From Chrysomallon squamiferum (taxonomy: Eukaryota > Animalia > Mollusca): DNA of 64,000 nucleotides. The stretch is taken from assembly GCA_012295275.1 (NCBI GenBank), contig CM022672.1, positions 32,488,001 to 32,552,000 on the forward strand, in the 5' to 3' direction. The notes under the pieces were generated by a model, which ran no database searches, was not told the DNA's origin, and saw nothing but the letters and a program-made list of their open reading frames with translations. Below, piece by piece: positions 36,477-46,262 of this stretch. Positions within the stretch are counted from its first letter, which is position 1; the number at the start of each line of letters is the position of its first letter. Made by a program: the position numbers and the translations under genes.

Positions 36477-36697
36477 TTAATGTAAAAGTAATAATAATAA
36501 ACGTAATAATAATAATAATAAACACGTTGCGTTTCCGTCGTGGAAGTATCCAGGTTTCTCCGTACACGACTTGACGCAGAATCGCGCCTCGCTTGACTTC
36601 GCTGCCAGGTTTTTCTGTTTACAGTTAAAACATTTGGTGCGACCCAGCCCCCAACACCCGCCTTTACACTCAGGATGACAGACAAACCCATCTTTGG
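36477..36697 (-). CDS. EGFR-like exon 11 (start of CR2, then poly-Leu tail and stop)
   Basis: tgcag acceptor; [27 protein letters not shown]...[32 protein letters not shown]. The 3' boundary is uncertain because of a weak possible donor (gtgttt) near 36524. Confidence 0.75.
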
Positions 36698-39600
36698 CTG
36701 CAAACAAGATAAACGATGATTATGATAGTGGTGGCAGAAGTAATATTGCTAGTAGTAGTAGTAGTAGTAGTAGTAGTAATAATAATAATAAATAACAACA
36801 ACAACAACAACAATAATAATAATAATTGTGATCGTAGAAATAGTAGAAATAATAACAGTAGTGTAACCAGTAGTGTAGAACACGTATATTAGTAGTAGTA
36901 ATAGTACTACTAATTTTACGACTAATAATAATATTATACATTTACAATACAATTGAAAAGAAACAGCAGTAACAGTTTTAACATACACACATTTATACAT
37001 ACACAGACAACATGCATCTACGTGCGCACACAGACAAGTAGACGCGCATACACGCACGCACGAAACAGACACTCACACACTAAATACAATACTGCAACAT
37101 TTACCACAATCAGAGGCATTCCTGTTGTCTCCTATGATCACTTTCTGATTTGGACTGTAAATAATTTTGGACCAGTTTATGGTGTCTGCCAGACACAGTT
37201 TATGGTTGACAATTATTTTAATGACACCATGTTTTACTGTCCTCAGGGACGTGAGTTCAAGTGTCCTCAGCGGTGTTACTAGAATGCTCAGTGCATTCTT
37301 ACGTCCACTTATGAAATAAATATAATTAAATACATGTGAATCGAAAGTGATGTGGAAAATATTACAACAGTGTAGTGTGTGTGTGTGTGTGTGTGAGAGA
37401 GAGAGAGAGAGAGAGAGAGAGAGAGAGAGAGAGAGAGAGAGAGAGAGAGAGAGAGAGAGAGAGAGAGAGAGAGAGAGAGATGTATAGTTACTAAAAAATA
37501 AAAATAAAGACAAATTATAAGTAAGACAACAAATTTTCAAATGTCTGCTCATTTAAGCCGAGCAACTGATAATGTGAAATATTGCAAACCTGGCTGAGAC
37601 ATAACTAAATGAATAAACTCTAGTTTATCTGACAAAACAAAACTCTGACTACATACGACATTGGACCATGGATTATCTGCAGGTTCGACAGGAAAGACAA
37701 ATCTGTGAAGTTCTCTGGCCCGAACTGGATGCTAAGAAACCCGTTAATTTCACGAATGTCTTTGAGTGCAAATAGTTGACTTGGATCAAGAGGAGGGATA
37801 TTTCTGTATTTGTCTCTGAACAAATAATAATAATAATAATAATAATAATAATAATAATAGTAGTAGTAGTAGTAGTAGTAGTAGTAGTAGTAGTAGTAGT
37901 AGTAGTAGTAGTAATTACAATGTGAGAGTCGATAATAAAATTACAGAAACTTTTAGTTTCAAATACTCTCTGACACAGAGAAACACACACACACACACTA
38001 TTTTTCAATCATTACTCATTTTCCCATCTCTTTCTCTTATTAAGATATGCATAGTCACACTGACAGATAAACATACACACACACATACATACAGACACAC
38101 AAATTATCATTCACTCTTTCACCAATATGCAGGTGCAAACCACTTAAATCCATTTACAGGTGAGAAAATGAAAATAAGCTAAGTACCCAAGAAATGTATT
38201 TTTCAGAATTAGAATATTCCCATCAACAATTGTACAGTCCTTAAAATTTTTGATGTTTGCAGCGTTTATGAAATCTCCTTTTTCTAAACCCTTGCAAGCT
38301 GAAAACAAATGTATGTATATTTTAACACTGCATAACCATTTGTTCATGTTATAAGTTTGCATTATTATGTATTGCCTTGTATATATAACAATATCTTTAT
38401 GTTTTAACATTATTTATAACAGTGTTATATTTGTATTACTATGTATTCACATGTGCTCATACAAGGTTCTTTATAATAATGTGTTCATATAACATTCTTT
38501 ATAACAGTGTCCACAAAACATTCTATATAACATTGTGTTCAAACTGAATTATATGCAACACTATATCCATACAACAATCTGTATCATGTGTTCATAAAAC
38601 TTTATACATAACAATATGTACATACAACACTCTCTATAACAATATTTTGTTATAACATTCTGTATAAAAATGTGTTCATACAACTTTCTATATAACAACA
38701 TGTTCACATTATAACATTCTGTACAACAGTGTCTCCTTATGACATTCTATATAATAACAATCTATTCCGTATAACAATCTGTTCATACATTATGGATAAC
38801 AATATGTTCATGTAACATTCTGTATAACAAAGTTTTCTTATAACATTCTATATAACAACATGTTCATATTATAACATTCTGTACAACACTGTCTCCTTAT
38901 GACATTCTATATAATAGAAATTAATCTTTTTCTACAACAGTTAATTATATGACTTTGTTAATGGGTACTGATCAAAAATGTAAGAAACAACAACAACAGT
39001 AGTAGTAGAGGCAATATAATGACGACAATGACAAAAATAACAATAAAACAACAACTATAATAATAGCAGAAGTAGTAGTAGTAAATGCATGACAATAACA
39101 ATAATAATAATAATAATAATAATAATAATAATAATAATAATACTTGTTTAATTTATAAAATAACAATAACAACAAATTAAAGTATTGTTTACTTACTATT
39201 TGGACACGCCCCTTGACAAGGTTCACAGATGTTTTCAGGAGACTGTTTTTTACCCTCAGGACACGACCTAACACAGGCCCCTTCATCTATTACCAGGTGA
39301 GCTGATAAATAAATAAATAAATAAATAAATAAATAAATAAATATGTGTGATAAACAAAATACTTGTTATTATTAAATACGATGAATAATTTATTATTTTA
39401 ATCTGAAATTTGGAATGTGCTGGCATGTGATAATACTGGTACTAATAGGTTAGTTTAAGTGAGATTTAAAATTTTTACACTTTCCACAATCTGTTCTTGA
39501 TATATTTTTTGATCCGACTGGAATTCAACTTCAGTGATAGAGACATTTTAATACTAATGTGGAGCTGTAAGTTTGAATTACTCATTATCAGACAGAAGCT

Positions 39601-45600: not shown

Positions 45601-46262
45601 TACAAGACTGTACAGTTTATATTATATACAAGACAGTTTTTCATATATCTTTTTCTAACCGTGCTCGTTTCTTCTCTAATTCAGTACACTGAGTACATTG
45701 AGACGTTTCCCCCTCTATTGATCGCTCTAAACCGGGGGCACAAACTTTGTGATGTTACAAGCCAAAGCTTTTCCTAGTTCATTGATGTCCTGGTAACACT
45801 AACATAAACGACACTGTCAGATCTAAAAATGAATACTGGATGTCTTGTTGTGTACAGCATCTGACAGTCATAGGAAATTCAGGGTGTACGAGTGTTTATA
45901 CTGACACGCAGCCTCGTTATATTTAAAATGAGACGTTAAATGTTGATGAGGTGACATCCCTCCCACAGGTGCAGGTTGCGCAGCCCTGTTCTAAACCCTA
46001 TAATGAAAAATAAAACTCACACTAAGGGGTCGTTCAAATATTATACAACGCTTATTTTCCAAGGTGAAAACGTCGTTTATCCGAGGAGAACGAAACGCGC
46101 GTTTTTTTTTGTTTGTTTTTTTCTTTCTTTTTAGCCTTCTGTCATTTTGTAAACAAAACTCAACCCACCTTGTTCGTCCTCTAAATTAACCAATCCAGTG
46201 GTAATCGCTGTAAGAATCCATAACCATGTGAAAGACAACACTAACGCACAGTAAAATGCCAT
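36477..46262 (-). CDS. EGFR/ErbB-like ectodomain protein (signal peptide, L1, furin-like CR1, L2, partial CR2), 11 exons, 577 aa, apparently lacking transmembrane and kinase domains
   Basis: Manually spliced exons 46262-46169, 44074-43718, 42706-42572, 40970-40887, 40526-40405, 40206-40065, 39301-39197, 38298-38187, 37815-37657, 37307-37105, 36697-36477. All introns are GT-AG with matching phases; total 1734 nt, no internal stop. Motifs [65 protein letters not shown] and [11 protein letters not shown] are typical of EGFR. Confidence 0.9.
37105..37307 (-). CDS. EGFR-like exon 10 (L2 end)
   Basis: [49 protein letters not shown]...NRNASDC; ataag acceptor, gtaaat donor. Confidence 0.88.
37657..37815 (-). 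CDS. EGFR-like exon 9 (L2)
   Basis: [53 protein letters not shown]; ttcag acceptor, gtatgt donor. Confidence 0.88.
38187..38298 (-). CDS. EGFR-like exon 8 (L2 start)
   Basis: [38 protein letters not shown]; tttcag acceptor, phase-2 donor gtactt. Confidence 0.88.
38400..38935. repeat. Degenerate tandem repeat in EGFR-like intron 7
   Basis: Recurrent ataacattctatataacaacatgttcat-like units. Confidence 0.7.
39197..39301 (-). CDS. EGFR-like exon 7 (end of CR1)
   Basis: [35 protein letters not shown]; atcag acceptor, gtaagt donor. Confidence 0.9.
39560..39965. repeat. Degenerate tandem repeat in EGFR-like intron 6
   Basis: Recurrent gagataagtctgagttactg-like units. Confidence 0.65.
40065..40206 (-). 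CDS. EGFR-like exon 6 (CR1, dimerization-arm region)
   Basis: [47 protein letters not shown]; ttcag acceptor, gtaaaa donor. Confidence 0.9.
40405..40526 (-). CDS. EGFR-like exon 5 (CR1)
   Basis: [41 protein letters not shown]; ttcag acceptor, gtgagt donor. Confidence 0.9.
40887..40970 (-). CDS. EGFR-like exon 4 (CR1)
   Basis: [28 protein letters not shown]; tacag acceptor, gtaagt donor. Confidence 0.9.
41975..42625 (-). repeat. Six-copy tandem array of the EGFR-like exon 3 3' end plus donor site
   Basis: Core cagtgtggacacacccatcagttttaa..ttatacc.gaccatgt recurs in the true exon and at 42463-42512, 42326-42374, 42233-42282, 42099-42147 and 41979-42028, separated by (TCTG)n-like spacers. Confidence 0.9.
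42572..42706 (-). CDS. EGFR-like exon 3 (end of L1)
   Basis: [45 protein letters not shown]; ttcag acceptor, gtgagc donor. Confidence 0.9.
42965..43665. repeat. ~24-bp tandem repeat in EGFR-like intron 2
   Basis: Unit tataaatacatctgtatatccatc with variants; source of the GYTDVFID repeat ORF. Confidence 0.85.
43718..44074 (-). CDS. EGFR-like exon 2 (L1 domain)
   Basis: tttcag acceptor, gtaagt donor; [38 protein letters not shown]...[11 protein letters not shown]. Confidence 0.93.
46169..46262 (-). CDS. EGFR-like exon 1 (signal peptide)
   Basis: Kozak-like gcc[35 protein letters not shown]; phase-1 donor gtgggt joins exon 2 as EDEQ-V-CTGTS. Confidence 0.8.

Follow-up and report, generated by a model that had tools for sequence, protein, structure and literature searches.

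For the insulin receptor, decoy genes lacking the kinase are an established class, and the EGFR traps known so far are splice or shed forms together with the distantly related proteins HPA-1/2. Drosophila SDR and holometabolan DR2 are stand-alone genes that arose by receptor duplication and kinase loss and kept the L-domain ectodomain, and SDR is secreted and binds ligand (PMC7253209). The gastropod locus described here, a kinase-less EGFR-like gene, shares this plan: it is a separate gene beside a longer paralog (paralog P1, seen into CR2), has an open reading frame and yields spliced transcripts. It is EGFR-derived and seen in one species, whereas SDR/DR2 belong to the insulin-receptor family and are old and conserved across many species.

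The human proteins p110 sEGFR, herstatin and sHER3 have ectodomains that end, like the present one, by intron read-through or an alternative terminal exon and carry a short new tail, and decoy activity has been described for the human soluble ErbB isoforms (PMC13107152). They are isoforms or shed forms of a full-length gene, have an intact dimerization arm and can pair with receptors; in contrast, the present gene occupies a locus of its own and its arm is degenerate. Caenorhabditis elegans HPA-1 and HPA-2, L-domain proteins with predicted secretion, act as genetic antagonists of LET-23/EGFR signalling, but they are described as insulin-receptor-related and not as direct EGFR duplicates with the L1-CR1-L2-CR2 order and intron positions (PMC3227454). 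The nearest sequence relative is the Haliotis rufescens EGFR (P0001), 54% identical over 557 aa with the same ectodomain order. Both this receptor and the Lottia pseudokinase EGFR (PMC4914847) keep the transmembrane (TM) segment and a kinase or pseudokinase, and the Haliotis protein, unlike the present one, keeps the arm tyrosines.

An intact gene for a truncated ectodomain

The gene lies in a 64-kb window, the whole stretch of DNA that was analysed, and consists of 11 minus-strand exons (36477..46262) that join to 1734 nt, i.e. 577 codons plus TAA. As the initial annotation had proposed, the exons splice in phase into one uninterrupted frame with that single stop; no frameshift and no lost splice site were found. 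All ten introns are GT..AG, and their sizes (198-2094 nt) agree with the 0.2-2.1 kb given before. The features are as follows.

46169..46262, minus: exon 1, ATG in good context, predicted signal peptide, aa 1-31 (hydropathy, Haliotis N-terminus)
43718..44074, minus: exon 2, L1 domain (Pfam PF01030, E 1.8e-14; 66% to Haliotis EGFR)
42572..42706, minus: exon 3, end of L1 (tblastn, splicing, Pfam)
40887..40970, minus: exon 4, start of CR1 (tblastn, splicing)
40405..40526, minus: exon 5, CR1 (tblastn, splicing, Pfam)
40065..40206, minus: exon 6, CR1 with dimerization arm (ungapped register to human EGFR 227-272)
40108..40161, minus: degenerate dimerization arm, aa 280-297 (alignment of homologues, window bases)
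39197..39301, minus: exon 7, end of CR1 (tblastn, splicing, Pfam)
38187..38298, minus: exon 8, start of L2 (tblastn, splicing)
37657..37815, minus: exon 9, L2 with D385, Y387, Q414 (register 1-50 = human 355-404)
37105..37307, minus: exon 10, end of L2 (joint 36697>37105 in X6, X7, X8, X9)
36526..36697, minus: exon 11 up to a weak GT donor at 36525; holds the first CR2 modules and ends with T562
36477..36525, minus: read-through end of exon 11, Cys563, 14-residue mostly-Leu tail, TAA
36064..36079, minus: alternative terminal exon, coding part K-C-Q-D-stop (X8 record 17)
35793..36142, minus: candidate AATAAA signals, starts 36142, 36119, 35798 (motif in AT-rich DNA)

The product runs from the signal peptide (hydropathy peak at aa 1-25 of exon 1, aligning with the Haliotis EGFR N-terminus) through L1, CR1 and L2 to the start of CR2, and its alignment covers residues 1-556 of the 1468-aa Haliotis receptor. 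Exon-by-exon Pfam analysis placed the L domain above cut-off in exons 2, 9 and 10; the short exons gave matches below cut-off, furin-like in exons 5, 6 and 7 and, in exon 11, GF_recep_IV over the first 38 of its 132 positions. The ectodomain is thus of ErbB type with CR2 present only to Pfam position 38, which bears out the earlier reading that it holds only the first CR2 modules.

Ten full-length EGFRs used as tblastn queries matched exons 2 to 11, and their distal CR2, TM and kinase parts had no credible match in the window (best E about 0.07-0.2, all to self-repeats or a BTB gene). This confirms the absence of such exons from the 36 kb downstream. The same-strand gene noted there before is a BTB-BACK-PHR gene at about 25351-23812. 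The stretch 35622-35819 resembles the 3' flank of this gene, which led us to look by tblastn for a PHR remnant behind exon 11; none was found. Intron 3 carries five degenerate copies of the end of exon 3.

The truncated 3' end is genomic and locally transcribed

Transcripts of the gene have two ends, either reading through into the (TTA)n poly-Leu tail or splicing to a downstream terminal exon. The second end, overlooked in the first reading, uses the phase-2 GT donor at 36525 and joins a terminal exon from 36079, 446 nt on, which adds four codons and reaches about 36011 or further; in the window, the letters just before this exon are AA, not AG. In X8, record 16 is identical to the window over 36512-36566, and the loose end of record 17 matches 36050-36079, a site unique in the window, in 29 of 30 letters; X8 displays both ends. 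Record 15 of X6 (study P1) has intron 10 spliced out and crosses the stop region to beyond 36210, with a stop-region length of 78 letters against 80 in the window. The joint of exons 9 and 10 was seen as loose letters in X8, and that of exons 10 and 11 in X6, X7, X8 and X9. X7 contains the present copy in a contig that stops at 36558, and the X9 contigs showed only paralog P1. RNA support therefore covers these two joints and both 3' ends, the ends coming from two samples of one study, and the transcript-end mapping suggested earlier yielded an expressed, spliced gene with two local ends in X6 and X8. None of the contigs in four RNA-like runs joined exon 11 of the present copy to a further CR2 exon. 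X6, X7 and X8 share 0.12-0.14 of words, about the expectation for exons alone; as contigs were compared from exon 9 onwards, this share does not count as support. Two runs of another organism, B, share 0.01-0.02 of words, which speaks neither for nor against the gene. We rejected a retrocopy as the origin of the spliced contigs, because in X8 most of intron 10 lacks depth and the DNA run X5 has no exon joint; the contigs are therefore RNA.

The initial annotation had allowed for an assembly break. EGFR homology does end exactly at the (TTA)n run, and 36451-36529 was masked in the read comparison, letters there being compared only over 36512-36529, in X8. However, single contigs from two studies bridge the masked stretch at the expected spacing (between 36450 and 36530, X2 record 12, DNA from study P2, counts 79 letters, the same as the window), and the spliced contig ties exon 11 to letters lying 446 nt further on. 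A mis-join at the microsatellite near 36520 is thus largely refuted, and we regard its chance as practically negligible. The truncated end is true in genomic DNA and is transcribed locally. It appears to be polymorphic, and both ends, one from a microsatellite and one from a cryptic-looking exon with an AA acceptor, look accidental.

Predicted loss of the dimerization arm with retention of the ligand site

Residues of the arm were taken from the window bases. T280 stands where 50 of 56 homologues have Pro, H285 (human Y246) where 50 of 56 have Tyr, D290 (human Y251) where 41 of 56 have Tyr or Phe and none has Asp, and S295 where 52 of 56 have Asn. The Y251 position is Tyr or Phe in fly and all human members (PMC3713454). 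These are four separate single-base missense changes, and none of 54 ungapped homologues lost all four marker positions. Columns conserved at 90% were lost at 3/3 positions in the arm and 5/150 elsewhere (Fisher p 1e-4, for a region picked after inspection). Among 100 proteins, arm loss was not significantly associated with kinase loss (1/23 vs 8/64, p 0.43), in a test that dropped 13 gapped rows, octopod ones included, and in which many kinase-less rows were fragments.

Human D355, F357 and Q384 are conserved ligand contacts (PMC11400634); their equivalents here are D385, Y387 and Q414, that is D, Y and Q. L382 of the hydrophobic site is replaced by Ser. In the alignment, the equivalents of D279 and R285 seem to be kept. 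Judged from these alignments, the Y246/Y251 equivalents of the dimerization arm are lost while key ligand-gripping residues are kept.

Paralogs and selection

At least three other EGFR-like sequences exist, giving at least four EGFR-like exon 10 sequences in total. Paralog P1 differs in 26/139 and 16/186 letters (82-92% identical) and carries on in frame into the next CR2 module, to which point it was seen. The dN/dS check named in the initial annotation gave 0.42 against paralog P1 (dS 0.27), a pairwise value below 1 but with a bootstrap range of 0.18-0.99 and a sample of 78 codons (31/42 differences); exon 11 alone gave 0.54 (0.17-2.1). Paralog P2 differs by six missense changes and one silent change in 32 L2 codons, a ratio that is not significant (0.2-3.7). 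Of the columns that hold Cys in 9 or more of 11 spiralian EGFRs, the present gene keeps all 38, and it keeps 81 of 83 invariant columns. None of 2000 simulations of neutral change, run with 0.07 or more changes per site, retained the frame and splice letters. The branch of the gene is twice that of the Haliotis EGFR (0.65 vs 0.30). The open frame cannot date the truncation, which is possibly much younger than the split from paralog P1.

The search for a species with the same truncation found no ortholog in protein collections, which may miss close relatives, and no full protein of the paralog came to light there either. Exon 2 against longer proteins had 20 matches, the best at 66%; the Haliotis ectodomain against shorter proteins had 69, whose identity to the model over a long stretch did not exceed 54%; a query of longer proteins with exon 10 left 0 of its 26 candidates; and HMMER over 1.84 billion representatives reached at most 62%. 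Several arthropod matches of about 500 aa stop at a comparable point in CR2; we did not class them as decoys because they resemble single-exon frames running into an intron, as we infer.

A kinase-less EGFR of octopods

Four octopod species have a 642-aa, kinase-less, TM-less and arm-degenerate EGFR, 91-99% identical to each other (annotated 'erbB-4-like'; CAI9729185.1, XP_014770046.1, XP_029640805.1, GAB1602997.1), for which we found no functional study. Like the present product, it has a signal peptide, L1-CR1-L2 and a partial CR2, lacks TM and kinase, and combines a degenerate arm with a kept G-D-x-Y ligand loop. Unlike it, the octopod protein has one more CR2 repeat and a basic C-terminal tail (18 of 30 residues K/R) and is conserved in four species, whereas the present gene, of separate origin, was seen in one; the two are about 40% identical. 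In the tree, the present gene was sister to the Haliotis EGFR (100/99), apart from the octopod proteins, and a single clade of both was rejected (AU p 0.009). Octopuses thus appear, on these sequence comparisons, to have evolved the design separately.

A probable monomeric ligand trap and its alternatives

We propose that the product of this transcribed paralog probably captures EGF-type ligands as a monomeric trap, with a probability of about 0.55 on present sequence evidence. An EGFR expansion in this gastropod would have produced at least four copies, and the present one likely originated as a gene duplicate that lost its 3' half, with everything past the second CR2 disulfide module. The recent partial duplication once listed as an alternative is then the probable origin of the decoy (dS to the nearest paralog about 0.27). 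Either transcript end would supply a Cys near 563, a potential partner of C549. L1-CR1-L2 would stay under purifying selection and could close with a ligand held between its two L domains. Having lost most of CR2, the protein would lack the tether, and without the arm aromatics pairing with itself or with full-length receptors would be poor, so that the protein would remove ligand rather than poison receptors. A 501-residue fragment of human EGFR may have a higher ligand affinity. The product is predicted to be secreted, and the poly-Leu form may possibly be held at the cell surface: its microsatellite-encoded tail has a hydropathy of 1.98, although the spacer is very short by the rules for GPI anchors. 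In effect the protein would blunt or shape EGF signals, in the way that fly SDR acts on those of insulin-like peptides. Of the stand-alone ligand-sink paralog put forward in the initial annotation, the separate, transcribed, truncated copy stands, with paralog P1 continuing CR2; the sink itself is a prediction, strengthened because arm residues were lost and ligand-site residues kept.

The gene could instead be a dispensable duplicate in early decay, a working paralog until a recent deletion of its 3' half and transcribed by inertia. We hold this possible but unlikely. Its accidental-looking, apparently polymorphic ends, long branch, higher exon 11 dN/dS and lack of an ortholog in protein searches fit such a course, as does the local instability marked by the exon 3 copies in intron 3. 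However, 577 codons and ten introns carry no stop, frameshift or splice-site loss, and the four missense changes cluster in the arm while conserved columns elsewhere are kept at a normal rate, a pattern that would need time under selection without pairing. That the gene yields a short isoform, its remaining exons for CR2, TM and a kinase (or pseudokinase) lying over 36 kb off, outside the window, and the contigs capturing only the transcripts that terminate locally, we consider improbable. A usable phase-2 donor ends exon 11, rare forms drop out of unitigs, and human ErbB genes yield intron read-through isoforms (PMC13107152); yet the ten introns are short, the BTB gene intervenes, the RNA-like runs gave no contig onward to CR2, and a full-length receptor with a degenerate arm would signal poorly.

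Binding of another ligand (diverged, immune or symbiont-related) within a diversifying receptor family seems quite improbable. It would suit the number of exon 10 sequences, against two EGFRs each in Lottia and Crassostrea (PMC4914847 Table 1), and the missense excess of paralog P2, but that excess is not significant and the canonical contact residues are kept. Human soluble ErbB forms can also act as dominant-negative partners or as carriers that extend signalling range (PMC13107152 section 7), and the apparently retained D279 and R285 equivalents would allow such a role; with the aromatics that mediate pairing lost, we rate it very improbable here.

Implications for EGFR evolution

If the monomeric trap is real, a dedicated EGFR-derived trap without the pairing arm would be a case in which nature has uncoupled ligand binding from dimerization and would offer a simple test of monomeric ligand binding by invertebrate EGFRs. 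The two 3' ends show a truncated duplicate in the act of taking over a microsatellite or a cryptic exon as its terminus. The main metazoan EGFR survey sampled kinase-bearing sequences only (PMC4914847 methods), so that a kinase-less class may be widespread and uncounted, and the octopod genes suggest that it arose at least twice in molluscs. Tentatively, and at somewhat less than even odds, molluscs may have repeatedly evolved EGFR decoy genes that lost TM, kinase and arm, kept the ligand site and act as monomeric traps with lineage-specific retention tails, which would be microsatellite-born poly-Leu in the gastropod and polybasic in octopods; surveys counting only kinase-bearing EGFRs would have missed them.

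Structure and surroundings of the EGFR-like gene

The EGFR-like gene comprises 11 minus-strand exons running from 46262 to 36477. Joined, they form a 1734-nt frame of 577 codons that ends at a single stop, and the ten introns (198 to 2094 nt) are without exception GT..AG; the uninterrupted kinase-less frame read in the initial annotation was thus confirmed. Hydropathy indicated a hydrophobic N-terminus, and exon-by-exon Pfam analysis gave the order L1, CR1, L2 and first part of CR2. The 577-aa model shared 54% identity with residues 1-556 of the Haliotis rufescens EGFR (1468 aa), which was also its nearest neighbour, as sister (100/99), in a 31-row ectodomain tree (branch length 0.65 vs 0.30 for Haliotis). 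When ten full-length EGFRs were searched against the window, exons 2-11 were recovered, and there was no match to the later parts of the receptor (distal CR2, transmembrane helix, kinase), in agreement with the earlier view that no such exon lies downstream in the window. The gene does not qualify as an ErbB receptor kinase. The same-strand gene noticed downstream is a BTB-BACK-PHR gene.

Features around the EGFR-like gene
23812-25351, minus (same strand as the EGFR-like gene): BTB-BACK-PHR gene, two exons, ~11 kb downstream
41930-42520, intron 3: tandem repeats of the final ~55 nt of exon 3, five in number, all degenerate and mostly ending in a donor-like sequence
49052-50030, upstream: minisatellite, ragged copies of ~38-bp units
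about 54770-61460, minus: segments resembling exons of a further multi-exon gene, found by eye

The intron 3 copies are possible alternative donors or exon-duplication debris. A segment behind the EGFR-like gene (35622-35819) showed 74% identity over 200 nt, on the same strand, to one behind the BTB gene (23089-23286); the pair could stem from a dispersed repeat or from the borrowing of a 3' end.

The gene end in sequencing runs

Eleven sequencing runs were listed, nine with part of the window (three studies), and seven were compared as contig records (X1, X2, X5, X6, X7, X8 and X9). The repeat at 36451-36529 was masked in this comparison, so bridging was judged from record coordinates. The X1 contig breaks within the repeat. 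X2 record 12 (DNA, study P2) covers both of its flanks with 79 letters between them, exactly the window spacing, and X6 record 15 (study P1) is a single 744-nt contig in which exons 10 and 11 are spliced, the stop region measures 78 letters against 80, and the sequence extends past 36210. These two contigs span the end; thus, the mis-join near 36520 that the initial annotation had named as an alternative is very unlikely, and a read-through transcript exists. The intron-10 joint was found in X6 and X8, both guessed as DNA by automatic typing; since X8 had no depth across most of intron 10, and DNA run X5 contained the intron without the joint, X6 and X8 behave as RNA.

In X8, two contigs diverge at 36537. 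Record 16, the read-through form, is identical to the window across 36512-36566. Record 17 departs at 36526, directly before GT; of the 30 letters that follow, 29 agree with 36050-36079, a site occurring once in the window. The spliced form is in frame and ends T562-K-C-Q-D-stop (566 aa, no hydrophobic tail); the read-through form ends with Cys563 and a 14-residue, mostly Leu tail encoded by (TTA)n. A Cys near the end is therefore kept in both, and either could pair with C549 in the last disulfide, presuming the human EGFR pairing. Ahead of 36079, the pyrimidine tract in the window is followed by AA where an acceptor would have AG, and record 17 differs from the window at two letters of exon 11; we infer that this record came from an allele, or a nearly identical copy, whose acceptor is intact. 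Another possible origin is a template switch between short, imperfectly repeated sequences. Transcript mapping, as initially proposed, thus gave two local 3' ends, read-through and splicing to a terminal exon (X6 and X8 contigs). Both are known from one study; the X7 contig of this gene ends at 36558, and X9 showed only a paralog. A dispersed repeat (36241-36415) lies within the read-through 3' UTR/last intron and has other copies (~90%) in DNA runs.

Paralogs and constraint

X7 contained four types of exon 10: the EGFR-like gene and paralogs P1, P2 and P3 (P1 and P2 are distinct from the like-named studies). They differed from the gene at 16/186 letters (P1), 7/76 in X7 and 12/133 in X8 (P2), and 14/80 (P3); in exon 11, P1 differed at 26/139. 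The comparison covers the contig pieces, loose ends and differences that were listed; a further 66, 31 and 9 of these, respectively, lie outside it. One survey gives Lottia and Crassostrea two EGFRs each (PMC4914847), so the EGFR family appears, by these sequences, to be expanded in Chrysomallon squamiferum. X9 record 23 (P1) runs 401 nt beyond the truncation point; the first 30 of these letters encode N-G-T-C-R-R-C-H-S, which belongs to the following CR2 module. A separate paralog was thus found, continuing CR2 past the break at least into that module. At 37163-37295, P2 is 91% alike with more divergent flanks, and its listed changes are 6 missense and 1 silent, a hint of gene conversion or of diversification on the L2 surfaces.

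The dN/dS analysis suggested initially was done pairwise against P1 over 78 codons, using 31 listed of 42 differences (12 silent, 19 missense). It gave dS 0.27 (0.13-0.49), dN 0.11 and a ratio of 0.42 (bootstrap 0.18-0.99); exon 10 gave 0.28 and exon 11 0.54 (0.17-2.1). Neutral simulations kept the frame and splice letters in 0/2000 cases at >=0.07 changes per site and in 2.5% at 0.035, and the protein retains 38/38 conserved Cys and 81/83 invariant columns. Together, these results suggest constraint on the gene through most of its history after the split from P1, which does not fix the age of the truncation.

Dimerization arm and ligand site

Which residues are lost and which are kept gives the strongest indication of how the protein may act. 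The dimerization arm in CR1 is described as the main dimer contact, and the Y251 position is occupied by Tyr or Phe in fly and in every human member (PMC3713454, PMC4359325); an arm-domain IV tether is also described (PMC4359325). Exon 6 aligned ungapped to human EGFR 227-272, so that His285 falls on Y246, and Asp290 on Y251. Of 83 matches, 56 homologues span the arm; Pro280 was present in 50 of these, Tyr285 in 50, Tyr/Phe290 in 41 and Asn295 in 52; the window sequence encodes T, H, D and S. None of 54 ungapped homologues had lost all four markers, one had lost three and five had lost two. The EGFR-like protein lost 3/3 of the 90% conserved columns in the arm vs 5/150 elsewhere (p 1e-4, the region having been picked after looking). 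In a second set with 34 arm-spanning rows (of 135 proteins), 21 had lost no marker, five one, two two, one three and one four, and four were gapped; the three- and four-loss rows were frog EGFR-like models without kinase. In the pooled set, arm loss vs kinase loss was not significant (1/23 vs 8/64, p 0.43, 13 gapped rows dropped), which counts against a trap. Further kinase-less EGFR-like models, some with altered arms, occur in frogs (P0086, P0226, P0191, P0002, P0045) and hemichordates (P0039, P0160) and may be further decoy lineages or incomplete models.

Exon 9 aligned to human EGFR 355-404. Three of the four conserved ligand contacts named in PMC11400634 are retained there: D355, F357 (replaced by Tyr) and Q384. 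The L382 position is Ser, in a column variable among invertebrates.

A kinase-less design in octopods

EGFR-like entries of 642 aa exist for four octopods, one each in Octopus vulgaris, O. bimaculoides, O. sinensis and Argonauta hians (CAI9729185.1, XP_014770046.1, XP_029640805.1, GAB1602997.1; P0090, P0220, P0221, P0222), 91-99% identical and annotated only 'erbB-4-like'. These proteins have no transmembrane stretch, kinase or arm aromatics, keep the G-D-x-Y loop, and carry a basic tail (18 K/R in 30 residues); no paper on them was found in the literature searched. By sequence comparison, the design is clearly conserved among octopods. Grouping them with the EGFR-like gene was rejected (AU p 0.009; octopod branch long, 1.72), indicating that the kinase-less design probably arose at least twice in molluscs.

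Nature of the EGFR-like gene

The EGFR-like gene is a transcribed truncated paralog. The initial annotation took it for a stand-alone ligand sink rather than a splice isoform; the paralog stands, and its product most likely works as a monomeric ligand trap (probability about 0.55), with the arm markers lost and ligand contacts kept. Decay of a recently truncated duplicate is less likely; the truncation could be younger than the split from P1. It is more doubtful still that the transcripts are a short form of a very long gene, whose remaining exons would lie beyond the window; within the window, full-length queries matched only exons 2-11, and both transcript forms end locally. An assembly break can practically be dismissed, as the X2 and X6 contigs cross the repeat in which X1 breaks.

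For the insulin receptor, paralogs without a kinase are an established class (SDR and DR2), and single-species cases are considered hard to separate from artefacts or pseudogenes (PMC7253209). Human soluble EGFR isoforms are described as decoys or receptor-pairing partners (PMC13107152), and HPA-1/2 as antagonists of worm EGFR signalling (PMC3227454). The Barberan survey admitted kinase-bearing sequences only (PMC4914847), and no publication on a molluscan EGFR paralog lacking the kinase was found among the titles and abstract openings searched, in a collection with few subscription papers. The EGFR-like gene is best filed among the kinase-less decoy receptors.
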